DNA of 64,000 nucleotides from a virus, in the IMG/VR virus record IMGVR_UViG_3300000052_000003; one strand, written 5' to 3'. The notes under the pieces were generated by a model. That model saw only the letters and a list, made by a program, of their open reading frames with translations. It was not told where the DNA came from and did not search any database. Position 1 is the stretch's first letter. Each line of letters starts with the position of its first letter. The position numbers and the translations under genes are program-made. Below are positions 49-35,448 of this stretch, in pieces.

Positions 49-336
49 ATGAATGCTCAATTAAAAGAACTTGCCTACGGTGCTGCTTACAATGCTTTCT
101 TCAATAGCCATCGTGCTGATCGCGCTGGACTTAATGAAAACCAGATCAAAATTTTAGACTGGGTAGAGCCTAGCCTAGCTGACGCCTACGCTCAGTTAAT
201 GGTAGCTAGCGGAGGCAATCAAAAAGAAGCTTTGCGAATTATTCAGATTTTATACAAGCCAGAAAACTTAGTCAAAATCTTCAAGGCGATCGAGGCTGGT
301 GAACTTGAAGAAATTTTTCCAGGGCTGAACATTTAG
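49..336 (+). CDS. Hypothetical early protein (95 aa)
   Basis: ORF directly downstream of early promoter P1 with ACATCTAAAC leader motif. Confidence 0.75.
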   Translation: MNAQLKELAYGAAYNAFFNSHRADRAGLNENQIKILDWVEPSLADAYAQLMVASGGNQKEALRIIQILYKPENLVKIFKAIEAGELEEIFPGLNI

Positions 337-539: not shown

Positions 540-1106
540 ATGAAAAATTTAATCAGTAAATTCGCCAGTGTTAATGTCGGTCTTGAGATCAATATCGAAA
601 GATGTGTCGCTTTGGGCCGTAATTTAAGAGCAAAAAGCGCCTATGCTAAACCACTTTTCAATTATAGATTTAGCAGTGTTGAACAAATGGAAGCTTGGCT
701 TGAAAAAGAATTAAATCGTAAATTAGCGATCCAAGCCTACCAGGATGAAAGAAAAGCAGAGAAGAAAAGAGCGCTTGAAAATAATCCTTTCCAGGTTGGA
801 GATCTTGTCTACGATAGCTGGGGATACGAGCAAACTAACATTGACTTCTACCAGGTGATCGAAGTTAAAAACAAAAGCGTAATGATCCAGCCGATCCAGG
901 GCAAAATGGTTCCAAGCCAAGGATATAGTAGCATGGCCGGTTTAACTGCTCCAGTTGCTAATAGTTTCTGTGGGGAGCCAATCAGAAAGAATGTGAACGC
1001 CTGGGTAAGTGGCGGAAATCCTAGCTACTATTTAAGAAGTGAGCACGGGATCATCAATCTTTACAATAAAGGAGACGAAGGAGTTTATTGCAGTTGGTAT
1101 GCTTAA
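540..1106 (+). CDS. Hypothetical early protein (188 aa; SWGYEQTNIDFYQV motif)
   Basis: Long ORF with ACATCTAA leader; stop overlaps the HD gene start (ATGCTTAA). Confidence 0.8.
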   Translation: MKNLISKFASVNVGLEINIERCVALGRNLRAKSAYAKPLFNYRFSSVEQMEAWLEKELNRKLAIQAYQDERKAEKKRALENNPFQVGDLVYDSWGYEQTNIDFYQVIEVKNKSVMIQPIQGKMVPSQGYSSMAGLTAPVANSFCGEPIRKNVNAWVSGGNPSYYLRSEHGIINLYNKGDEGVYCSWYA

Positions 1107-1617
1107 AAATAAAAATATAGAAAGTCAATTAATTAAGGAAGCCAGGGAACTGGCTTTCTGTTATCACGCCGATCAGATGTATGGATCACGTCCTTACTCT
1201 TATCACTTGCAAAAGGTAGTCAATATAGCTAGATTTTATTCTAGTTTGATCCCTAAGGAAGATCTTGAAGACGTCATTTGTGCCGCTTATTTGCACGATA
1301 TCCTCGAAGATACCCTATGCACCCAGGATGAAATTTTAAGAGCCTTAAATCCAAGGATTTTGTTGTTGGTTAAACTGCTGACAAAAAACGGATCAGATCC
1401 AGAAAGCTATTTTAACCAGGTAGCCCAGGATGATCTGGCGATCTTTATCAAATTATGCGATAGATATGCGAATGTTTTAGCGTGTGTTTACGATGGCGAA
1501 GATAAGAAGCTTGCTAAATATAAAAAGCAGAACCCTTATTTAATTAGGATTCTGCTTAATAAAAATTATATCGAATTAATGGAAGGAATCGAAGGATTAC
1601 TTCTTGCTTTTGATTAG
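1099..1617 (+). CDS. HD-domain small alarmone hydrolase (Mesh1/SAH/Aph1-like (p)ppNpp hydrolase)
   Basis: Motifs H..Q.Y...PYSYH, AAYLHDILEDT, IKLCDRYAN typical of RelA/SpoT HD hydrolases; ATG 1099 preferred over GTG 1039. Confidence 0.85.
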   Translation: MLKNKNIESQLIKEARELAFCYHADQMYGSRPYSYHLQKVVNIARFYSSLIPKEDLEDVICAAYLHDILEDTLCTQDEILRALNPRILLLVKLLTKNGSDPESYFNQVAQDDLAIFIKLCDRYANVLACVYDGEDKKLAKYKKQNPYLIRILLNKNYIELMEGIEGLLLAFD

Positions 1618-1838
1618 TAGGCTAAATACTCCGACTCGCTAATCTCTTTGCCTCCTTGATAGATCGCTTCGATCGCTAAGTCGGTGTTGAATGCCAAAGG
1701 GAATTCTTCGCCGGCTTTTCTTTTTGCAATCAGGCTCGGATTTTCTGGAAGACTTTTAATTACCAGATCTTCGCTTTCTAAAAGCAAATAAACTGGCACG
1801 CTATTTAAGCGCTCTACTAAATTCATCAAGTCACTCAT
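1614..1838 (-). CDS. Small acidic protein (74 aa), candidate immunity/antitoxin
   Basis: Immediately downstream of the protease-synthetase gene on the same strand; role inferred from position. Confidence 0.6.
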   Translation of the reverse strand: MSDLMNLVERLNSVPVYLLLESEDLVIKSLPENPSLIAKRKAGEEFPLAFNTDLAIEAIYQGGKEISESEYLAY

Positions 1839-1861: not shown

Positions 1862-3160
1862 TTAGAAACCAAAATTTTTGTAGTAATTTATTGACTGAGA
1901 TTTTAGCTCCTCAATCCTCTTTACATTTCCTACGGTTGGACGTTCAGCATTTAGGACTCTGATCTCTTCGTATAGCTTATGACCTTGGCCCCCAGGTAAA
2001 CCGGTTCTTTGTGCGATCTCATTATATTTCTGATCTCCTAATACTGCTCTAGCGCTTCCTTCTTTTTCTTTAGCGTATATCATCGCTGGAGTGTTGATCT
2101 GCATTTCTGCCATCGTACCGTTTTCAGTCTTGAAATTTACGATCGTTCCAGAATAGCCGAAGAATTGATCGCCTTCCTGAACCTTAATTCTACCGCCATT
2201 CTCAGCGCTGAATCTAGGATCAGATTTTGCCAGATCTCTGGCTGATCCGATCTTGTCTCGATCTATTACGACGGTGTTTCTGACTGCATCTTTTATCGCG
2301 TCTACCTTTCCACCTTCTTCGTCGTTTACCTTTCTTAAAATACTATCTTCAGATTTTAAGTTGATCGGAGTCACTACGCCTCCCAGTTTTTCAGCATAAC
2401 CTTTGCCTACTTTGTCCACTTCGCCAGACGAAGCTTTAGCGCCTGCCATTAAACTAGAAACTCTCGGATCTCCTGGTTTTACGATTGCCACTTTTGGCAT
2501 CCTACCAGCTCCCTTTGATTCTTTATCGGATCCTCCTTCTGGACGTCTACCACTACCAGGACCACCGAAATCTATTGCCTCCAGTATTACTGAAATTTCA
2601 GACCAAAGTTTTTGTTCTTTAGTCATCTCTCCAGGTTGCTTTTTGTAATTGAACATACCTTCGACGCTAAAGCCTTTAAATTCTCCAGACTTAACCTTCG
2701 TCCAGACGTCATCATTATCGATCGAATAAGAGGCAAAAGCGGAGCCGTCGGGAGCATCCTCAAAACCTTTCATAGGTTTGATTCCTCTCGACTCATCTGT
2801 GATCCAGATTTCAAACATCGTCACACCTTCGACCACCTGGTTAGGATCGTGCATCAAATTGACGTTTGAAGTGTATCCCTTCTGGAACATTTTTTTAACG
2901 ATCTTGTAAATCGTGTCTTTAGGGAAGGAGACAAAGTACTCCTGGCCATTATCGTTTCGATAGATCGGTGTATCTGCCAGCATAATAGGACCAGAGATGA
3001 TTCGACGCTCTTCGTCTTGGATCTCAAAATTCAATCGATCTGCTTTGAAGCGTAGGAAGTTTCTCTCGATCGCTGGCTTGTCTACCAAAGCGACGAAATC
3101 CACTTCTGATCCATCCATTAGATCCTCATTAATTTCTAGCAAGTAAATAGGTAAATTCAT
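1862..3160 (-). CDS. Prohead protease (XkdF-like) fused to C-terminal RelA/SpoT-type (Apk/Tas1-like) alarmone synthetase domain
   Basis: N-term NLMHD and GFSVEG protease motifs; GGPGSGR linker (aa199-205); C-term KSEDSILRKV, DAVRNT, GYSG, EMQINT, HKLYEEIR. Confidence 0.85.
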   Translation of the reverse strand: MNLPIYLLEINEDLMDGSEVDFVALVDKPAIERNFLRFKADRLNFEIQDEERRIISGPIMLADTPIYRNDNGQEYFVSFPKDTIYKIVKKMFQKGYTSNVNLMHDPNQVVEGVTMFEIWITDESRGIKPMKGFEDAPDGSAFASYSIDNDDVWTKVKSGEFKGFSVEGMFNYKKQPGEMTKEQKLWSEISVILEAIDFGGPGSGRRPEGGSDKESKGAGRMPKVAIVKPGDPRVSSLMAGAKASSGEVDKVGKGYAEKLGGVVTPINLKSEDSILRKVNDEEGGKVDAIKDAVRNTVVIDRDKIGSARDLAKSDPRFSAENGGRIKVQEGDQFFGYSGTIVNFKTENGTMAEMQINTPAMIYAKEKEGSARAVLGDQKYNEIAQRTGLPGGQGHKLYEEIRVLNAERPTVGNVKRIEELKSQSINYYKNFGF

Positions 3161-20458: not shown

Positions 20459-20487
20459 GATTTAGATGTTTTGTAGTTGCTTCGTTG

Positions 20488-20541
20488 CTGACTACATGAC
20501 AAATTTAATACCTTTTTTGATATAAAAAAACTTTTTTTAAA
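20488..20541 (-). promoter_or_regulatory. Early promoter P3 (A/T box-TATCAA-N9-TAAATTTG-N4-GTAGTCAG)
   Basis: Identical spacing to P1 and P2. Confidence 0.8.
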
Positions 20542-20567
20542 TTTATTTTAAATTATTTTTCAGACAC

Positions 20568-27571: not shown

Positions 27572-29545
27572 TTAGTCTTTTTTTATTACCACTTGAGAAG
27601 CCCAGACGTGACGGCAAGAAGGAGAGTGTTCTCCGTCTGGCATTGTCCACCAGCCACCGCGACGATCAAATACTGAATAACCTAGGCGCAAGCTGATCGC
27701 TTCGATTTCTGCTCTGGTGTATAGCTTATCTAATTGCATCAAGCGCGCACAGAATTGTCTGCTTGGATGCGCTGCTGAGTTTCTCTGTCCTGCTGGTATC
27801 GATGATCTCCACTCGTAAGAATAACGGACCATAAAGCTACGCGTCGATGGCTTGGTGTCAGTGATCTCAGATAGGGGAGATGTTAAAATTCTCTCGACGT
27901 TTCCCCTTACATTTGTGGACTTGATCAAACCGCGCTCCTCTAAGGAGTCCATGATTTTATTTATGATCCCTAGATCCGTTTTGATCGTCCCAGCTATAAT
28001 CTCAGGAGTGATTCTTTTGTCCTTCTGGATGAGATCCAATACATTCGCCTCTAGACGCGTTAATTCTTGCGTAGCAAAGTCTAAATTCATCGCCTCCTCT
28101 AAGTCATTAGGCAAAGCAGAGAACGTGTCTCTAGTGCGAAATATGGAGTAATTACTTTTAGACTCTCCGAACTGATCAAATATCGAGATTACATCATCTT
28201 CGCTGAATCGTAAATTAGTAGAAGCTGGAGCTCCTTCTAATTCAGATCCACCTTGCTCAGCTATTAAGCCTACCAAAGCGCGGACCTCATTTGGAGTCAT
28301 TGACTCAAGTACTTTATTTGCTACTAATGGCGATAAGCTATTGATTGCATCGATCACATCCTGAGAAGTTCCAGAAGTTTTCGGTTCTAATTTAGGAGCT
28401 CCAAGTTTTTCGCGGATCTCGTCTTTAGTTAAGTTCTGCGCGATCGTAGTTTCAGAGAACTCCATACCAATCGGCTCGACTGGAATTATTTGTAGCCCAT
28501 TGATAGCACCGCGTAATTTGGCAAGTAAACTGAATACTTGTTCTTGATATATTTGCTTATCATTTACATAAGTGTTTTTAAATATCTCGTAAGAATCGCG
28601 CATTTGCTGGCGTGATCCTAATTGCCCAGGTGTAGCAATACCGAATAAATCTGGAGACGTGATCTGGTGACCAGCGTACACGTTTTTCTCAATGATTTTA
28701 TCTACGTTTGCGAAATCCTCCTTTGTAATATCAGAAGCTCCTAGATCCTCAATGATTGGCTTTCTAGAAGCATCGTTCACAAAGGAAAGAATGAACTTTT
28801 TTCCGTCGGATCCTGAGAAACGATCTGTAAATTTACGCTCTACTATTCTCTTCTCTTCATCTTGAGGCTCACCGTTAGGAAGAGTGATCAATTTTGAAGC
28901 ACTAAATCCGGTCTGAGCATTGCCTAAAACGTGCTTAGAAACCTCGATATCTGACTCGATATAGTTTAAAGCACCAATATAACCAGGTAAAGAGTAAGCC
29001 GAAAGGTTAGGACGGTACTCTTTTAGATACAAAATCTGGGTTCCTTGAGGCAATTTGTCGTTAAAAGCGTTGTAAATAGAGCGCTTATACTTACTATCTT
29101 GCCAGTTTTCAGAGTACCAGAACTGGGTATTATCGTCATTTGTCCGGACCTTAGTATAGTCTAAGTGATAAATCTCCGAAACTTGACCAGCTATCTGGCT
29201 CCAGATTACTTGAAGATAAGCACCTCCAAACAATTCGACGTCAGTAGATACTTTTTTTAAGATATCATTTAATGATTCGAAAGGGTTTGGCTTCTCAATA
29301 AACTCCTGAGCGATCTGATCGTTTTCATCTACTGGTTTAAAGCCATTACCAGTGATATAATTTACCTTGCTTTTAATAATCGCGTTATGCTTAGCTGATT
29401 TAGTAAACAAATCGACCAAGTAATTAGGGTAGTCGTTCTTTTTTCCGAACTCAATATATCCGCCGTTCTCTCCTTTTTTCTCAGAGTATTCTGGCTGCCT
29501 TGCTTCAGCAAAGGTAAGGACATTTAAAAAGTTTGTATTGCTCAT
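27572..29545 (-). CDS. Portal protein with C-terminal winged-helix and MuF-like extensions
   Basis: Portal-like core (HNAIIKSK..YITGNG, GHQITSP.LFGI); C-terminal SRQFC and CRHVW motifs. Confidence 0.85.
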   Translation of the reverse strand: MSNTNFLNVLTFAEARQPEYSEKKGENGGYIEFGKKNDYPNYLVDLFTKSAKHNAIIKSKVNYITGNGFKPVDENDQIAQEFIEKPNPFESLNDILKKVSTDVELFGGAYLQVIWSQIAGQVSEIYHLDYTKVRTNDDNTQFWYSENWQDSKYKRSIYNAFNDKLPQGTQILYLKEYRPNLSAYSLPGYIGALNYIESDIEVSKHVLGNAQTGFSASKLITLPNGEPQDEEKRIVERKFTDRFSGSDGKKFILSFVNDASRKPIIEDLGASDITKEDFANVDKIIEKNVYAGHQITSPDLFGIATPGQLGSRQQMRDSYEIFKNTYVNDKQIYQEQVFSLLAKLRGAINGLQIIPVEPIGMEFSETTIAQNLTKDEIREKLGAPKLEPKTSGTSQDVIDAINSLSPLVANKVLESMTPNEVRALVGLIAEQGGSELEGAPASTNLRFSEDDVISIFDQFGESKSNYSIFRTRDTFSALPNDLEEAMNLDFATQELTRLEANVLDLIQKDKRITPEIIAGTIKTDLGIINKIMDSLEERGLIKSTNVRGNVERILTSPLSEITDTKPSTRSFMVRYSYEWRSSIPAGQRNSAAHPSRQFCARLMQLDKLYTRAEIEAISLRLGYSVFDRRGGWWTMPDGEHSPSCRHVWASQVVIKKD

Positions 29546-30605: not shown

Positions 30606-31568
30606 TTAAGCTAAGATAAAATCAACCATCTCAGCAGGGAAAGCGATCTGAACGCCAGCCTTGAACTCAGCTACGAAACGAACTTGATCCGCTTCTTTAG
30701 CGAAGAACAATTCGAAACGCTCTTGCTCATCTAATAAGTCAGTTCCAAAGAACATGTTAGAAACGCGACCACCGTAGATCTTAGAAGTACCGTTCAAACC
30801 TTGAACTGCTACTACTTTTACCGTAGTACCTGGAAGCATTAACTCAGAATCTGCCTTGCCATCAAAATTGTAAGCGAATAAGTTCGCGTTCTTTAATGCG
30901 ATTGTGTAAGTACGGAATACATCCATTCCTACGAAGATAGTCACATCATCCTTAGCTACGATCTCAGCAGGTAAAGCCTTGTAAACTGCGTCGATTACGT
31001 TGATCACGTTTGAAGTAGTGATACCAGCTGAAGCAGCTAATGGAGTACCGTAAAAAGTAGTCGTGTTAGCGTGGATTACTGAAGCAGAAGCAGCAGCTAC
31101 TAACTTAGCGAAACCGTCGAACTTGTTTAAGTTTCCGTTTGCTGAAGCAGTGTCTCCTTGCCAAGAAGCGATCTCTAATTGAGCAGCGATCTTGTCAGCC
31201 TTACGTTGTGAGTACTCAGCAGCGAATACGATTGAATCGTAAGAAGAACCAGCAGGTAAAGCCTTCTGTAAATACTTAGATTCTAAATCTTTCGGGCAAA
31301 GTTCCTCGTTTACCTTAATCTTTCCTACCGTTAAAGTACGTTGTGTGAAAGTAGTTGTACCTGAAGCGTTGAAACCGCAAGATGAACCATCTTGGAAGAA
31401 CGCGTCAGTGTCCATGATATTAACCGTTTCAGCAGACTTAACGCCTAACATCACGTTTCCTTGATCCTTGATCAAAGAGATTGTTTTTGCACCTAATACA
31501 GATGAAGCTACTAATTGGGTAGCGTTCTCTTCTGTATAGTTAGCTAATGAAGATACTACAAATGCCAT
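30606..31568 (-). CDS. Major capsid protein
   Basis: 320 aa after scaffold; HK97-type layout (ADKIAAQLE..WQGD, FDG), highly biased codon use. Confidence 0.9.
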   Translation of the reverse strand: MAFVVSSLANYTEENATQLVASSVLGAKTISLIKDQGNVMLGVKSAETVNIMDTDAFFQDGSSCGFNASGTTTFTQRTLTVGKIKVNEELCPKDLESKYLQKALPAGSSYDSIVFAAEYSQRKADKIAAQLEIASWQGDTASANGNLNKFDGFAKLVAAASASVIHANTTTFYGTPLAASAGITTSNVINVIDAVYKALPAEIVAKDDVTIFVGMDVFRTYTIALKNANLFAYNFDGKADSELMLPGTTVKVVAVQGLNGTSKIYGGRVSNMFFGTDLLDEQERFELFFAKEADQVRFVAEFKAGVQIAFPAEMVDFILA

Positions 31569-31588: not shown

Positions 31589-32182
31589 TTATTTTAAATT
31601 TTTTACTTTGTTTAAAAATCTCTCGATTTTCTCGTCTCTTTTCTCAGATTGAGAGAAAGAATTTTTTGGTGCCTGGATAGGACTAGCGCCTGGAGTTGAA
31701 GCTAAACCTAAAACTACGTCAGATAGATCATTGATCGCTTGAGAGAATTTACCCTCGATAGATGCGATCTTAGCTTTTAAAGCTTCGTTCTCTGCCTTTA
31801 AGTTTTCGATAGTGCCATCAATTACCTGGAACTTATCTTCTTCCATTGGAATTTCTTCCTCTGGCATTTCAATCGGCTCCATTTCTGCCTGAGGTGTCTC
31901 AATGCCTTCAATTTTGCCCCCTACGGTTGTGACCATAGTACCGTCTACTAGCTCATGCTCGCCATCTGGAGCAGGATAAGTATTGCCGCTTTCATCCACT
32001 AGCATCGCTTCAGCTCCAATCTCTAAACCGCTTAATTCAATCTTAGATCCGTCTTTAAGATCATAAGTTTCAAAAGCTAATTCTGCGACTGGTGCCTCTG
32101 GTTCGCTAGTCTCTACTTGATCGACCTCAAATTCTGAAGCCAGCATCAAGCGGATTTTTTCGATTCCTTCTTTTACCGTCAT
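31589..32182 (-). CDS. Capsid scaffolding protein
   Basis: Very acidic, APDGEHEL.DG motif, C-terminal coiled coil; directly upstream of the capsid gene. Confidence 0.8.
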   Translation of the reverse strand: MTVKEGIEKIRLMLASEFEVDQVETSEPEAPVAELAFETYDLKDGSKIELSGLEIGAEAMLVDESGNTYPAPDGEHELVDGTMVTTVGGKIEGIETPQAEMEPIEMPEEEIPMEEDKFQVIDGTIENLKAENEALKAKIASIEGKFSQAINDLSDVVLGLASTPGASPIQAPKNSFSQSEKRDEKIERFLNKVKNLK

Positions 32183-32242
32183 TTTTTATTTTGGTTTTTT
32201 ACTTTGCTTATAAATACCGTAGAAAAAAAACTTTATACTTTA

Positions 32243-32307
32243 TAGAAAAAAAAGTTTAAAAAAGTTTTTTATTATCAATTACTTTTGTATCTTTGATATG
32301 TAGTCAG
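32243..32307 (+). promoter_or_regulatory. Early promoter P1 (A/T box-TATCAA-N9-TATCTTTG-N4-GTAGTCAG), divergent from the scaffold gene
   Basis: Near-identical to P2; its 3' part also appears at 1-19. Confidence 0.8.
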
Positions 32308-32336
32308 AACGACAAAACATCTAAACAATAAAAGTC

Positions 32337-32624
32337 ATGAATGCTCAATTAAAAGAACTTGCCTACGGTGCTGCTTACAATGCTTTCTTCAATAGCCATC
32401 GTGCTGATCGCGCTGGACTTAATGAAAACCAGATCAAAATTTTAGACTGGGTAGAGCCTAGCCTAGCTGACGCCTACGCTCAGTTAATGGTAGCTAGCGG
32501 AGGCAATCAAAAAGAAGCTTTGCGAATTATTCAGATTTTATACAAGCCAGAAAACTTAGTCAAAATCTTCAAGGCGATCGAGGCTGGTGAACTTGAAGAA
32601 ATTTTTCCAGGGCTGAACATTTAG
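32337..32624 (+). CDS. Hypothetical early protein, copy 2
   Basis: Copy of 49-336. Confidence 0.75.
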   Translation: MNAQLKELAYGAAYNAFFNSHRADRAGLNENQIKILDWVEPSLADAYAQLMVASGGNQKEALRIIQILYKPENLVKIFKAIEAGELEEIFPGLNI

Positions 32625-32827
32625 CCCTAGAAAAAAAAGTTTAAAAAAAGTTTTTATTTATCAAATCTTTTATTACCTTTACTAAGTAGTCAGTGTGCTA
32701 CTAATCTAAACCCCATCAAAATGATTTATTTATTTATTTTACTCGCCCTTGTTTTCCAGATTGTTTTAAACAATCACGTTCAGAGAAACGGAAATATCAG
32801 TCTTTAATCTTTTAAACATCTAATATC

Positions 32828-33394
32828 ATGAAAAATTTAATCAGTAAATTCGCCAGTGTTAATGTCGGTCTTGAGATCAATATCGAAAGATGTGTCGCTT
32901 TGGGCCGTAATTTAAGAGCAAAAAGCGCCTATGCTAAACCACTTTTCAATTATAGATTTAGCAGTGTTGAACAAATGGAAGCTTGGCTTGAAAAAGAATT
33001 AAATCGTAAATTAGCGATCCAAGCCTACCAGGATGAAAGAAAAGCAGAGAAGAAAAGAGCGCTTGAAAATAATCCTTTCCAGGTTGGAGATCTTGTCTAC
33101 GATAGCTGGGGATACGAGCAAACTAACATTGACTTCTACCAGGTGATCGAAGTTAAAAACAAAAGCGTAATGATCCAGCCGATCCAGGGCAAAATGGTTC
33201 CAAGCCAAGGATATAGTAGCATGGCCGGTTTAACTGCTCCAGTTGCTAATAGTTTCTGTGGGGAGCCAATCAGAAAGAATGTGAACGCCTGGGTAAGTGG
33301 CGGAAATCCTAGCTACTATTTAAGAAGTGAGCACGGGATCATCAATCTTTACAATAAAGGAGACGAAGGAGTTTATTGCAGTTGGTATGCTTAA
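32828..33394 (+). CDS. Hypothetical early protein (188 aa), copy 2
   Basis: Copy of 540-1106. Confidence 0.8.
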   Translation: MKNLISKFASVNVGLEINIERCVALGRNLRAKSAYAKPLFNYRFSSVEQMEAWLEKELNRKLAIQAYQDERKAEKKRALENNPFQVGDLVYDSWGYEQTNIDFYQVIEVKNKSVMIQPIQGKMVPSQGYSSMAGLTAPVANSFCGEPIRKNVNAWVSGGNPSYYLRSEHGIINLYNKGDEGVYCSWYA

Positions 33395-33905
33395 AAATAA
33401 AAATATAGAAAGTCAATTAATTAAGGAAGCCAGGGAACTGGCTTTCTGTTATCACGCCGATCAGATGTATGGATCACGTCCTTACTCTTATCACTTGCAA
33501 AAGGTAGTCAATATAGCTAGATTTTATTCTAGTTTGATCCCTAAGGAAGATCTTGAAGACGTCATTTGTGCCGCTTATTTGCACGATATCCTCGAAGATA
33601 CCCTATGCACCCAGGATGAAATTTTAAGAGCCTTAAATCCAAGGATTTTGTTGTTGGTTAAACTGCTGACAAAAAACGGATCAGATCCAGAAAGCTATTT
33701 TAACCAGGTAGCCCAGGATGATCTGGCGATCTTTATCAAATTATGCGATAGATATGCGAATGTTTTAGCGTGTGTTTACGATGGCGAAGATAAGAAGCTT
33801 GCTAAATATAAAAAGCAGAACCCTTATTTAATTAGGATTCTGCTTAATAAAAATTATATCGAATTAATGGAAGGAATCGAAGGATTACTTCTTGCTTTTG
33901 ATTAG
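33387..33905 (+). CDS. HD-domain alarmone hydrolase, copy 2
   Basis: Copy of 1099-1617. Confidence 0.85.
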   Translation: MLKNKNIESQLIKEARELAFCYHADQMYGSRPYSYHLQKVVNIARFYSSLIPKEDLEDVICAAYLHDILEDTLCTQDEILRALNPRILLLVKLLTKNGSDPESYFNQVAQDDLAIFIKLCDRYANVLACVYDGEDKKLAKYKKQNPYLIRILLNKNYIELMEGIEGLLLAFD

Positions 33906-34126
33906 TAGGCTAAATACTCCGACTCGCTAATCTCTTTGCCTCCTTGATAGATCGCTTCGATCGCTAAGTCGGTGTTGAATGCCAAAGGGAATTCTTCGCC
34001 GGCTTTTCTTTTTGCAATCAGGCTCGGATTTTCTGGAAGACTTTTAATTACCAGATCTTCGCTTTCTAAAAGCAAATAAACTGGCACGCTATTTAAGCGC
34101 TCTACTAAATTCATCAAGTCACTCAT
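33902..34126 (-). CDS. Candidate immunity protein, copy 2
   Basis: Copy of 1614-1838. Confidence 0.6.
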   Translation of the reverse strand: MSDLMNLVERLNSVPVYLLLESEDLVIKSLPENPSLIAKRKAGEEFPLAFNTDLAIEAIYQGGKEISESEYLAY

Positions 34127-34149
34127 ATTTACAATATATAAAATTTTAT

Positions 34150-35448
34150 TTAGAAACCAAAATTTTTGTAGTAATTTATTGACTGAGATTTTAGCTCCTC
34201 AATCCTCTTTACATTTCCTACGGTTGGACGTTCAGCATTTAGGACTCTGATCTCTTCGTATAGCTTATGACCTTGGCCCCCAGGTAAACCGGTTCTTTGT
34301 GCGATCTCATTATATTTCTGATCTCCTAATACTGCTCTAGCGCTTCCTTCTTTTTCTTTAGCGTATATCATCGCTGGAGTGTTGATCTGCATTTCTGCCA
34401 TCGTACCGTTTTCAGTCTTGAAATTTACGATCGTTCCAGAATAGCCGAAGAATTGATCGCCTTCCTGAACCTTAATTCTACCGCCATTCTCAGCGCTGAA
34501 TCTAGGATCAGATTTTGCCAGATCTCTGGCTGATCCGATCTTGTCTCGATCTATTACGACGGTGTTTCTGACTGCATCTTTTATCGCGTCTACCTTTCCA
34601 CCTTCTTCGTCGTTTACCTTTCTTAAAATACTATCTTCAGATTTTAAGTTGATCGGAGTCACTACGCCTCCCAGTTTTTCAGCATAACCTTTGCCTACTT
34701 TGTCCACTTCGCCAGACGAAGCTTTAGCGCCTGCCATTAAACTAGAAACTCTCGGATCTCCTGGTTTTACGATTGCCACTTTTGGCATCCTACCAGCTCC
34801 CTTTGATTCTTTATCGGATCCTCCTTCTGGACGTCTACCACTACCAGGACCACCGAAATCTATTGCCTCCAGTATTACTGAAATTTCAGACCAAAGTTTT
34901 TGTTCTTTAGTCATCTCTCCAGGTTGCTTTTTGTAATTGAACATACCTTCGACGCTAAAGCCTTTAAATTCTCCAGACTTAACCTTCGTCCAGACGTCAT
35001 CATTATCGATCGAATAAGAGGCAAAAGCGGAGCCGTCGGGAGCATCCTCAAAACCTTTCATAGGTTTGATTCCTCTCGACTCATCTGTGATCCAGATTTC
35101 AAACATCGTCACACCTTCGACCACCTGGTTAGGATCGTGCATCAAATTGACGTTTGAAGTGTATCCCTTCTGGAACATTTTTTTAACGATCTTGTAAATC
35201 GTGTCTTTAGGGAAGGAGACAAAGTACTCCTGGCCATTATCGTTTCGATAGATCGGTGTATCTGCCAGCATAATAGGACCAGAGATGATTCGACGCTCTT
35301 CGTCTTGGATCTCAAAATTCAATCGATCTGCTTTGAAGCGTAGGAAGTTTCTCTCGATCGCTGGCTTGTCTACCAAAGCGACGAAATCCACTTCTGATCC
35401 ATCCATTAGATCCTCATTAATTTCTAGCAAGTAAATAGGTAAATTCAT
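34150..35448 (-). CDS. Prohead protease-alarmone synthetase fusion, copy 2
   Basis: Copy of 1862-3160. Confidence 0.85.
   Translation of the reverse strand: MNLPIYLLEINEDLMDGSEVDFVALVDKPAIERNFLRFKADRLNFEIQDEERRIISGPIMLADTPIYRNDNGQEYFVSFPKDTIYKIVKKMFQKGYTSNVNLMHDPNQVVEGVTMFEIWITDESRGIKPMKGFEDAPDGSAFASYSIDNDDVWTKVKSGEFKGFSVEGMFNYKKQPGEMTKEQKLWSEISVILEAIDFGGPGSGRRPEGGSDKESKGAGRMPKVAIVKPGDPRVSSLMAGAKASSGEVDKVGKGYAEKLGGVVTPINLKSEDSILRKVNDEEGGKVDAIKDAVRNTVVIDRDKIGSARDLAKSDPRFSAENGGRIKVQEGDQFFGYSGTIVNFKTENGTMAEMQINTPAMIYAKEKEGSARAVLGDQKYNEIAQRTGLPGGQGHKLYEEIRVLNAERPTVGNVKRIEELKSQSINYYKNFGF

Follow-up and report, generated by a model that had tools for sequence, protein, structure and literature searches.

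Among toxins carried on phage head proteins, the closest described relatives of the locus studied here are the Apk2 proteins, MuF-fused (p)ppApp synthetase toxins of temperate phages accompanied by Tis1-like and Aph1 immunity proteins and described in Bacteroides caccae, Streptococcus pneumoniae, Mannheimia and Pasteurella (PMC10083569, PMC12226406). All tested Apk1 and Apk2 domains convert ATP to (p)ppApp; both Tis1-like binders and (p)ppApp hydrolases neutralise them (PMC10083569, PMC12226406). The authors who characterised Apk2 call the packaging and injection of MuF toxins untested. How and why phages carry such toxins is the question addressed by the present lineage. In T4, delivery of head proteins is established: the internal proteins and Alt use a capsid-targeting sequence, are cleaved by the gp21 prohead protease and are injected with the DNA (summarised in PMC5512222).

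We analysed a 64,000-nucleotide stretch of DNA (the window) from an uncultured phage of about 32 kb. The window is made of a 32,288-bp unit in two exact copies. The Apk-Tis1-hydrolase triad is already known; here, it is found on an XkdF prohead protease instead of MuF (Apk2) or PAAR (Apk1).

The protease-toxin fusion

The fusion gene is a 432-aa ORF (positions 1862-3160, minus strand; second copy at 34150-35448) consisting of an XkdF-type protease, a linker and a Tas1/Apk-type toxin domain. An alignment-based AlphaFold2 model was used, single-sequence AlphaFold2 having given a pLDDT of only 38. The model has a mean pLDDT of 82 and shows two folded domains around a disordered region at aa 196-223.

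The N-terminal part (aa 1-198; 2567-3160, minus strand) is an XkdF/Peptidase_S78_2 prohead (capsid-maturation) serine protease domain, as shown by HMM match, fold and place beside scaffold and capsid genes. Pfam PF14550 (Peptidase_S78_2/XkdF) matched aa 45-169 over its gathering score (E 2.3e-11), and residues 16-177 of the model were aligned by VIA to the T4 gp21 capsid protease (5JBL) with a modest Z of 8.3. Residues H104, S140, S144, S165 and E167 are invariant across the protease domains of the lineage. In relatives without the toxin (unarmed relatives), 45-60 nt separate the protease gene from the scaffold-like and capsid-like genes downstream of it. Pfam detected neither Phage_Mu_F nor PAAR in the 432-aa protein, which therefore falls outside the published definitions of Apk2 and Apk1 (PMC10083569). 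A MuF-like domain considered at the portal end was not supported by Pfam at E<=0.01, where only Phage_portal and a weak wHTH were obtained. No integrase was seen in the phage genes.

The C-terminal domain (aa 224-432; 1865-2491, minus strand, followed by the stop codon at 1862-1864) is a predicted (p)ppApp synthetase toxin domain of the Tas1/Apk adenosine 3'-pyrophosphokinase family. The initial annotation had placed it in the (p)ppApp (Apk/Tas1) clade from five synthetase motifs, all of which were found at the claimed residues: LKSEDSILRKV (268-278), DAVRNT (291-296), GYSG (335-338), EMQINT (352-357) and HKLYEEIR (394-401). As an argument for the clade, these motifs hold in part: syn2 (RNT) agrees with Tas1, but syn3 and syn4 read G-T-I and I-N as compared to the published GxN and YH. 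The motif set is nevertheless no chance likeness, because aa 199-432 alone matches Tas1 (6OX6_A), the sole PDB sequence retrieved by phmmer at E<=10 (113.6 bits, E 1.2e-31). With a family profile, Tas1 scored 214.5 bits, followed by SaEAS (26.5 bits) and by Rel/RelQ-like chains (20 bits at most), leaving a gap of about 190 bits between Tas1 and the next PDB match; CapRel and FaRel/FaRel2 were not matched by this profile in the PDB search.

Structural comparisons gave the same ranking. Foldseek TM values of the modelled domain were 0.84 with Tas1 (rmsd 2.5 A), 0.58 with SaEAS, 0.4-0.55 with RelP/Q, 0.36 with FaRel and 0.27 with CapRel. In VIA, 192 of 194 residues were aligned to Tas1 (Z 22.4, rmsd 2.2 A), the next best Z being 12.1; RelP, RelQ and CapRel were at about 12 (CapRel 12.0) and FaRel at 7.5. 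Structural alignments showed 34-35% identity with Tas1, and all 13 invariant columns of the family are kept (K269, K277, D291, R294, G335, E352, Q354, A363, K364, G393, H394, Y397 and R401). Pfam RelA_SpoT scored the domain below threshold (E 0.049), and nothing in Pfam or NCBIfam scored it above threshold. The proposed clade was thus borne out, Tas1 being best by profile, Foldseek and VIA and the partner genes being those expected for Apk. A grouping with ppGpp-making SAS or tRNA-modifying toxSAS was looked for, and the domain grouped with Tas1/Apk instead in both profile and structure rankings, which covered CapRel and FaRel among the toxSAS. Overall, the data support membership of the Tas1/Apk family, rather than of either of these groups.

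The ATP-site residues published for Apk1 are R330, K353, N370, E382 and Q384 (PMC12691689). Using a numbering offset of 21 residues deduced from the alignment, the window keeps R294, K326, E352 and Q354 as counterparts; in the column of N370 it has Ile340, with Asn342 two residues further. SaEAS, a fold relative, produces both (p)ppApp and (p)ppGpp (PMC12691689), and therefore the fold alone does not tell which product is made; synthetase motifs alone do not determine specificity either (PMC12226406). Most likely, the domain pyrophosphorylates ATP/ADP to (p)ppApp, which would deplete ATP.

The MuF-fused homologues of the toxin domain are 45-47% identical to it. A tree was built within the Apk family, with PAAR- and MuF-bearing homologues standing in for P. 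aeruginosa Tas1 and B. caccae Apk2 themselves. The Apk clade of the window lies within a 99%-supported clade containing MuF-fused Apk domains, and two further XkdF-fused clades fall outside. The XkdF-fused Apk domains are therefore split across the tree, showing at least two carrier switches. The PAAR-bearing homologues of Pseudomonadota form a separate clade with 100% support. Carrier labels in this tree are incomplete, since MuF was labelled in 6 proteins by local iterative detection as compared to 9 by Pfam.

Immunity genes and payload exchange

A 74-aa ORF (1614-1838, minus strand) begins 23 nt past the toxin stop codon and belongs by sequence to the Tis1 family, with a predicted immunity role. 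An HMM of the phage copies found ORFs of 71-79 aa immediately after Apk genes in many bacterial genomes, and the joint profile matched Tis1 (6OX6_B) with an E of 3.1e-26. Pfam Tis1_ImmP matched 21 of the 27 family members; the 74-aa ORF of the window itself was not matched by Tis1_ImmP, nor by any other Pfam or NCBIfam model above threshold. When profiles of the window clade and of Pseudomonadota Tis1 were compared directly, the match was weak (E 1.8e-4, probability 48%).

Convergent with these genes lies a second candidate immunity gene (1099-1617, plus strand; 172 aa from ATG 1099, the longest ORF starting at GTG 1039). It codes for an RSH-type HD small alarmone hydrolase that carries the motifs of RelA/SpoT hydrolases and is predicted to give immunity by hydrolysing (p)ppApp. 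The protein matched Pfam HD (E 8.6e-6) and the hydrolase region of TIGR00691, and the H..HD..ED..DR..N hydrolase motifs are invariant in the HD proteins. Against the PDB, Rel hydrolase domains and PaSAH (6YVC) were matched at about 1e-5, Aph1 (7SMG) being marginal at 0.36. The HD protein thus resembles the bifunctional PaSAH more closely than Aph1, which is specific for (p)ppApp. In four Chitinophagaceae MAG contigs, we found a protease tail, linker, Apk domain and Tis1-like ORF together with additional Tis1-like ORFs.

The toxin and its partners belong to a 2.64-kb cassette (32243-34881, corresponding to 32243-32288 plus 1-2593 of the circular unit), which comprises the last protease codons, the linker, the Apk, Tis1-like and HD regions, two further genes (p188 and p95) and promoters. 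In a blastn comparison with the unarmed relative L008, homology is lost at about codon 189 of the protease and is regained 60 nt ahead of the scaffold-like gene, the 2.64 kb of the window corresponding to 28 bp in L008. The same indel was seen against the relative L012. Outside the cassette, identity between L008 and the window is 96% for the protease, 87% for the scaffold-like protein and 98% for the capsid-like protein. The unarmed protease stops about 5 residues ahead of the linker position (..ILKECKV* in L008 as compared to ..ILEAIDF-GGPGSGR in the window).

The initial annotation had proposed that the sequence behind the protease would vary in homologues while the protease is conserved. 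We examined the best 120 of 1106 and the best 80 of 574 relatives and found just such variation: proteases without a cassette and proteases with Apk, Zeta or other tails. Apk, Zeta_toxin (PF06414) and at least 2 further tails are borne by protease domains 58-65% identical to that of the window. One and the same linker precedes the Apk, Zeta-toxin and other tails, with divergence setting in 10-25 aa beyond it. Partner genes vary with the payload. Tis1-like and HD genes are each present in 16/16 Apk loci and in 0/9 Zeta loci, while a 57-aa ORF is present in 9/9 Zeta loci and in 0/16 Apk loci. The 376-aa and 307-aa tail classes have no immunity genes. No Pfam or NCBIfam match was obtained for the 57-aa Zeta partner or for the 157-aa and 116-aa tails. 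Therefore, the locus is a polymorphic toxin system, with a conserved carrier, alternative unrelated C-terminal toxins and a payload-specific adjoining immunity gene.

Two cassette genes have no assigned function. The 188-aa protein p188 (540-1106, plus strand) matched phrog_37844 only, with no Pfam or NCBIfam match and no ESM Atlas lead. Its gene is present in 16/16 Apk and 9/9 Zeta cassettes; unarmed relatives lack it, as do relatives without immunity genes. The 95-aa protein p95 (49-336, plus strand), which likewise had no Pfam or NCBIfam match, is encoded by the first gene of the plus-strand module, behind a promoter-like element. This gene is conserved in the window-clade Apk loci L002, L010, L018, L025 and L039 (58-98% identity); in L006 and L007 no homologue was detected at E<=1e-4, and an 84-aa ORF occupies the same place. 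The promoter-like element is common to the regions upstream of the 95-aa gene, upstream of the 188-aa and HD genes, and at about 20.5 kb.

Past the cassette, the next head gene encodes a 197-aa, coiled-coil-like, scaffold-like protein (31589-32182, minus strand), which weakly matches Nonlabens phage gp01 and, in the XkdF-plus-scaffold fusion family phrog_24921, the C-terminal half. Among the relatives listed, about 70 unarmed loci have it immediately behind the protease. The 320-aa major-capsid-like protein (30606-31568, minus strand) matches the virion structural protein phrog_1623, is homologous to Nonlabens phage gp02 and is 66-98% identical over all related loci.

The GGPGSGR linker

The linker (aa 199-223; 2492-2566, minus strand) is glycine-rich and predicted to be disordered, pLDDT being below 50 across aa 196-223 of the AlphaFold2 model. 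As previously noted, it starts right after the protease domain: GGPGSGRRPEGG is found at aa 199-210 of the 432-aa ORF. Amino-acid pair identity in the linker is 0.94 as compared to 0.3-0.5 in the flanks. In contrast, synonymous-codon identity is not raised (0.47 as compared to 0.57-0.70), which rules out the linker as a DNA-level recombination block. Because it is kept as a peptide and not as a DNA homology block, the linker is a junction marker rather than a crossover site. Thus, of the initial view of the linker as a recombination point, the part that stands is that it marks the payload junction; its conservation is at the peptide level only.

Apk and Zeta payloads have four linker types in common. 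The GR-type linker was present in 0/178 non-XkdF Apk proteins, and it is therefore tied to the carrier/cargo system and not to Apk toxins generally. The initial annotation had also placed the motif in other phage head proteins with accessory domains, and it was indeed found in unrelated phage contigs, where K-GGPGSGR-[HKR]-PEG joins portal, XkdF or short leaders to other domains. These are ART, NUDIX, DUF4258, Zn-peptidase-like, methyltransferase, pentapeptide-repeat and topoisomerase IB domains. The flanking Lys is conserved among the unrelated proteins bearing the motif. Since the same motif links other effectors to head proteins in unrelated phages, the linker is probably a cargo-processing signal and, in the window, a candidate processing site at the payload junction. 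No mention of the GGPGSGR motif or of XkdF/prohead-protease carriers was found in the searchable literature.

It is possible, although we would put it forward only tentatively, that K-GGPGSGR-[HKR]-PEG is a general capsid-cargo signal, most simply one that the maturation protease recognises or cuts. With its help, many uncultured phages would couple short leaders or head proteins to effectors destined for injection (Apk, Zeta, ADP-ribosyltransferase, NUDIX, DUF4258, Zn-peptidase, methyltransferase, a pentapeptide-repeat DNA mimic and topoisomerase IB) and then free these effectors in the head. The fusion of the window would then be one instance of a modular cargo-loading code, giving a (p)ppApp burst at entry that an early hydrolase would reverse. 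If this were true, injected effectors would become predictable across uncultured phages.

Encapsidation model, alternatives and known systems

We consider it rather probable that the armed phage protease, with its disordered conserved linker and Tas1/Apk toxin, represents one allele of a polymorphic-toxin locus whose product is encapsidated and injected. The 2.64-kb cassette, found in part of the phage lineage, takes the place of the final protease codons and brings in the linker, the toxin, a same-strand putative inhibitor of the Tis1 family and an opposite-strand module (95-aa, 188-aa and RSH-type HD hydrolase genes) with its own putative promoters; sister phages have no cassette, or a Zeta-toxin cassette with a different small partner gene. 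Prohead proteases themselves become incorporated in the procapsid, and for this reason the protease moiety would carry the toxin into it. Cutting of the linker, probably by the protease, would then set free a toxin of about 23 kDa inside the head. On ejection into the next cell along with the DNA, the toxin would cause an immediate shut-off by ATP-to-(p)ppApp conversion. Tis1, presumably co-transcribed with the toxin, would guard the producing cell late in infection, and the hydrolase, whose promoters appear to share their type with a promoter in the replication region, would clear (p)ppApp early after entry. Prohead proteases usually digest themselves and exit the head, so that retention of the payload is an assumption of the model. 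The packaged toxin could also be inert if Tis1 stays bound to it.

Alternatively, the toxin may not be virion cargo and may act late inside the producing cell, in host-metabolism shutdown or lysis tuning, the protease fusion merely giving late co-expression and Tis1 and the hydrolase setting the timing. The fusion gene does lie within the late structural array with its inhibitor immediately downstream, packaging is something that we infer, and full-length MuF-Apk2 is less toxic than the free domain (PMC10083569), fitting a regulated intracellular role. However, co-expression hardly explains fusion to a procapsid-built protein via a linker that elsewhere also joins effectors to portals. Moreover, unarmed sister phages manage without the toxin, and the orphan Tis1-like genes of the Chitinophagaceae MAG contigs suggest that immunity is selected in cells that do not make it. 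We therefore regard a purely intracellular role as unlikely.

A different chemistry, namely synthesis of (p)ppGpp, of both alarmones as by SaEAS, or tRNA pyrophosphorylation as by CapRel, FaRel2 and PhRel2, appears quite improbable. The partial match of the specificity motifs, with Ile for the syn3 Asn, would be compatible with it, as would the resemblance of the linked hydrolase to bifunctional SAHs, the failure of motif swaps to convert Apk2 specificity (PMC12226406) and the fold shared with the promiscuous SaEAS (PMC12691689). Set against this are the identity (34-35%) and Z of 22.4 with Tas1, as compared to about 12 for CapRel and RelP/Q and 7.5 for FaRel, the profile gap of about 190 bits, a cognate inhibitor of the Tis1 family, and the nesting of the domain among MuF-fused Apk, whose tested members make only (p)ppApp. 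Very little credit can be given to the idea of a linker that is a mere flexible spacer, passed on together with the carrier, and of a C-terminal domain that has decayed into a non-toxic remnant: predicted disorder of the linker agrees with it, and the 376-aa and 307-aa tails without immunity genes may be non-toxins, yet the linker peptide is far better conserved than its flanks with no synonymous excess, the motif recurs in unrelated proteins with its flanking Lys, all invariant catalytic-core residues of the family are present, and two dedicated immunity genes are strictly retained.

Under the encapsidation model, the lineage gives a second and mechanistically clearer carrier of (p)ppApp synthetase toxins, a protease known to enter procapsids. 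Armed and unarmed sister genomes and alternative payloads are natural controls, and the short conserved linker is a directly testable candidate processing site. The lineage also takes phage polymorphic toxins past temperate phages and past MuF.

Compared to known systems, the toxin domain shares the RSH synthetase fold with toxSAS (FaRel, FaRel2, PhRel, CapRel) and SAS (RelP/RelQ). FaRel is likewise able to synthesise (pp)pApp, and its antitoxin is a hydrolase. However, toxSAS and SAS have different neutralisation partners and are far more distant in structure (Z 7.5-12 as compared to 22.4 for Tas1, among structures including CapRel and FaRel). The working model resembles the fate of the T4 internal proteins, in that cargo would enter the procapsid, be freed by the maturation protease and be injected; the N-terminal domain has a gp21-like fold, and the short-leader-plus-motif proteins of other phages resemble capsid-targeting-sequence cargo. 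Unlike in T4, the cargo of the window is fused to the protease itself, and its motif bears no relation to the L/I-x-E sites of T4. With the MuF polymorphic toxins (Jamet et al. 2017, PMC5576092) and the phage polyvalent proteins (Iyer et al. 2017, PMC5512222), the locus shares a conserved N-terminal carrier associated with the head, toxins that vary at the C-terminus, an immunity gene further downstream and signs of cassette exchange, whereas its carrier domain differs from both.

Tas1/Apk1-Tis1 of Pseudomonas aeruginosa PA14 (6OX6) is the best match in sequence and structure, with cognate immunity of the Tis1 family and shared RNT (syn2) and E-x-Q-x-N (syn4) signatures. Tas1 is a T6SS effector delivered by prePAAR/PAAR, whereas the domain of the window is on a phage protease and differs at the N370 equivalent. 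With Apk2, the window shares the toxin family, the C-terminal position of the toxin on a virion-assembly protein, and the association of a head-protein toxin with a Tis1-family binder and an HD hydrolase. It differs from Apk2 in that the carrier is XkdF and not MuF, a GGPGSGR linker precedes the payload, and the hydrolase gene is convergent, lies in a separate promoter-bearing module and encodes a protein nearer to PaSAH than to Aph1. Finally, MuF toxins have been described as specific to temperate phages, whereas the phage of the window shows no integrase.

The protease-toxin fusion and its genome

A 32,288-bp unit, which is a circular or concatenated phage genome, is present in the window as two exact copies (0 mismatches over 31,712 compared positions), so that every feature appears twice. 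The minus strand carries nearly all genes, including those for the portal, the terminase, DnaB, a lysozyme and a tape-measure-like protein. Inspection of all ORFs of at least 180 aa revealed neither an integrase nor a recombinase. At its C-terminus, the portal protein (27572-29545, minus strand) is extended by ~300 aa that give a weak winged-helix match; Pfam detected no MuF domain there.

The 432-aa ORF at 1862..3160 (minus strand) joins a protease to a toxin domain. Pfam Peptidase_S78_2 (XkdF) matches aa 45-169 above threshold, and aa 199-432 match Tas1 (PDB 6OX6_A; E 1.2e-31), the sole PDB sequence with E<=10. Since Pfam RelA_SpoT reaches only E 0.049 on this protein, the toxin would be missed by standard annotation. 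An AlphaFold2 model, built from an 84-row alignment (mean pLDDT 82), contains two compact domains separated by disordered residues 196-223, the GGPGSGRRPEGG region. The N-domain model (16-177) matches the T4 gp21 capsid protease with Z 8.3 and, in BFVD, many XkdF proteins and one XkdF-Zeta fusion. The C-domain model superimposes on Tas1 with Z 22.4 (192 residues, 2.2 A), as compared to ~12 for RelP, SAS2, SaEAS and CapRel and 7.5 for FaRel; Foldseek gave a TM score of 0.84 for Tas1 and at most 0.6 for the others. A profile from 38 family members scored 214.5 bits against Tas1 and 26.5 bits against SaEAS, the next structure, with CapRel and FaRel absent from its structure matches. All 13 invariant family columns are kept in the window protein. 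Five ATP-site residues have been described in Apk1 (PMC12691689); by alignment, four of them appear conserved and the fifth, an Asn, is offset by two positions. All motifs read in this ORF by the initial annotation are present at the residues it assigned, and the profile and model scores favor its placement of the domain in the Tas1/Apk-type (p)ppApp clade.

Payload exchange behind a conserved linker

A search with aa 1-200 returned 1106 proteins of 237-756 aa. Among the best 120 of these, with protease domains 58-65% identical to that of the window, 42 carry an Apk tail, 20 a Zeta_toxin/AAA_33 tail and three a 157-aa unknown tail; the others have nothing after the protease. The three tail-bearing classes all contain GGPGSGR(R/Q)PEGGG and diverge 10-25 residues downstream. 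Three other linker types (GGEGSGCxGDNCGRPKGSG, ERDxxGRFAPKGGGG and ERDESGRWGSGGG) are each common to Apk and Zeta payloads, each on its own carrier subclade. The expectation that tails would vary after GGPGSGR on a conserved protease was thus borne out. The accompanying proposal, that the motif is the recombination point, holds only in that payloads change after it. Indeed, in ten type-1 (GGPGSGR-kind) loci, amino-acid pair identity over GGPGSGRRPE is 0.94 versus 0.3-0.5 in the flanks, while synonymous-codon identity in the linker, 0.47, is not above the 0.57-0.70 of the flanks. This rules out a DNA homology block for recombination and shows selection on the peptide.

A motif of this kind is lacking from all of 178 Apk proteins that have other carriers. 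When IMG/VR was scanned at the DNA level with a degenerate pattern for G-G-P-G-S-G-R-x-P-E-G, 113 stretches emerged; 80 loci from among them, with 84 matches, were examined. About half of these matches lie outside this lineage, usually as K-GGPGSGR-[HKR]-PEG, a motif for which our literature search found no paper. In unrelated phage proteins, it connects a portal with DUF4258 or with NUDIX and a tail; it also links an unknown N-terminal part with an ADP-ribosyltransferase or Zn-peptidase-like domain, and a methyltransferase with an XkdF protease; elsewhere, a 9-21-aa leader and the motif precede a pentapeptide-repeat protein or topoisomerase IB (locus-local coordinates L181:973-2706, L199:6929-7810, L184:3951-5723, L204:2773-4545, L227:1642-3852, L220:1109-3385, L188:4488-6308). 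One 113-kb contig encodes three motif-bearing proteins. The initial annotation's statement that other phage head proteins with accessory domains contain this motif therefore holds. Its conservation and recurrence are compatible with a signal, for processing or for cargo, that would act within the head.

In IMG/VR, 574 relatives were found, of which the best 80 loci were examined. In most of these the protease is unarmed (without toxin payload), measures ~197 aa and ends ~5 residues short of the linker position; scaffold-like and capsid-like genes follow after 45-60 nt. In one relative, L008, the protease, capsid protein and scaffold protein are 96%, 98% and 87% identical to those of the window, and 28 bp replace 2.64 kb (32243..34881) holding the linker, Apk, the Tis1-like and HD genes, a 188-aa gene and a 95-aa gene. 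Together with the unarmed layout, this shows that the cassette is wedged into a set of protease, scaffold and capsid genes that normally lie side by side. In gp01 of Nonlabens phage P12024L (L004:179-1228), the XkdF protease continues into a fused C-terminal part weakly like the scaffold-like protein, which is separate in the window; this fusion in cultured Nonlabens phages suggests that proteins of the capsid interior are naturally attached at the protease C-terminus. Some lineage proteases (L005:5001-5885, L007:5001-6596), whether or not they have a toxin tail, contain a ~100-aa Cys-containing insertion (..GWGSCG.. ..GYGDGCG..) that separates the protease core from the first 40 residues.

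Genes accompanying the payloads

Among non-redundant loci recovered via the linker pattern, the Tis1-like and HD genes accompany the payload in 16 of 16 Apk loci and in none of nine Zeta loci, a 57-aa convergent ORF in none and nine, respectively, and the 188-aa gene in all. The 376-aa and 307-aa classes are devoid of these four genes and have the scaffold gene directly next. The Zeta toxin (PF06414) of a sister phage (L001:6001-7452; also L059 and nine loci) is preceded by the same linker. Its constant 57-aa companion (L001:7449-7622, minus strand), without Pfam match, is a candidate antitoxin. The 188-aa protein (540-1106, plus strand; phrog_37844, function not annotated) is encoded in every Apk and Zeta cassette and is missing both in unarmed phages and where a tail has no immunity genes; it may therefore serve packaged toxins in general. 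Two more tails after the same linker, of 157 aa (L003:6601-7131) and 116 aa (L177:2179-2526), have neither Pfam match nor adjoining immunity genes and so may be non-toxic cargo.

In the window, a 74-aa ORF (1614..1838, minus strand) starts 23 nt downstream of the toxin ORF on the same strand, and all Apk-armed relatives encode a homologue. An HMM from the phage copies alone retrieved ORFs of 71-79 aa that directly adjoin Apk genes in Riemerella, Prevotella, Pseudomonas, Vibrio, Neisseria and others. The joint profile matches Tis1 (6OX6_B, 77 aa) across its full length (E 3.1e-26), and Pfam Tis1_ImmP matches 21 of its 27 members. Because the window clade aligns only weakly to Tis1 by direct hhalign (E 1.8e-4) and Pfam misses the window's own copy, its assignment to the Tis1 family is by transitive homology together with position. 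The convergent gene at 1039/1099..1617 (plus strand) encodes a predicted RSH-type HD hydrolase, matching the TIGR00691 hydrolase region, and Rel hydrolase domains and PaSAH at ~1e-5; the match to Aph1 is marginal (E 0.36). Its hydrolase motifs are invariant.

In the mechanism we propose, the protease moiety would bring the toxin into the procapsid, where cutting of the linker would leave a protease of unarmed size and a free toxin able to enter the next cell together with the DNA. Late co-transcription of Tis1 would protect the producer cell, and the hydrolase, expressed early, would clear (p)ppApp after entry. A promoter-like element (A/T box, TATCAA, TAnnTTT(G/A), GTAGTCAG) has two copies, both on the plus strand (32235-32340 and 335-405), that would drive the plus-strand cassette genes, the hydrolase lying behind one of them. 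Its third copy (20470-20545, minus strand), at ~20.5 kb, lies ahead of the replication region, which suggests early expression of the hydrolase.

In four Chitinophagaceae MAG contigs, protease tail, linker, Apk and Tis1-like sequence form a single ORF, accompanied by additional Tis1-like ORFs. In the Chitinophagaceae and Ferruginibacter contigs with this layout (L088:896-1849 and L088:2041-2268; also L089-L091 and L167), the context looks chromosomal; the ORF has ~20 protease-tail residues, its Apk domain looks intact, its Tis1-like domain is in frame, and separate orphan Tis1-like ORFs lie close by. This arrangement may be an orphan toxin-immunity module; alternatively, the toxin may be fused and self-inhibited. 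These ORFs give a hint of the host range, and also a hint that immunity is selected for in cells.

Relation to Apk2 and Tas1

Apk domains formed 656 representative clusters at E<=1e-3; Pfam carriers among 99 representatives included MuF (9), XkdF (4), DUF6861 (3) and PAAR/DUF4280 (2). In an IQ-TREE phylogeny of 65 Apk domains (unrooted, quick search, incomplete carrier labels), one clade with 99% support unites MuF-fused domains, two further XkdF-fused proteins and the window's clade; two larger XkdF-fused clades fall outside. At least two carrier switches are required by the starred branches. As judged from these sequences, the window toxin is more closely allied with the phage (Apk2-like) part of the family than with Tas1 proper, since prePAAR/PAAR (Tas1-like) proteins lie within a separate, 100%-supported Pseudomonadota clade. 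However, having no MuF domain, it is not Apk2 by definition. The Apk2-Tis1-Aph1 triad is already published (PMC10083569, PMC12226406); from its predicted proteins, the window locus reproduces the same three parts on a different carrier, an XkdF protease.
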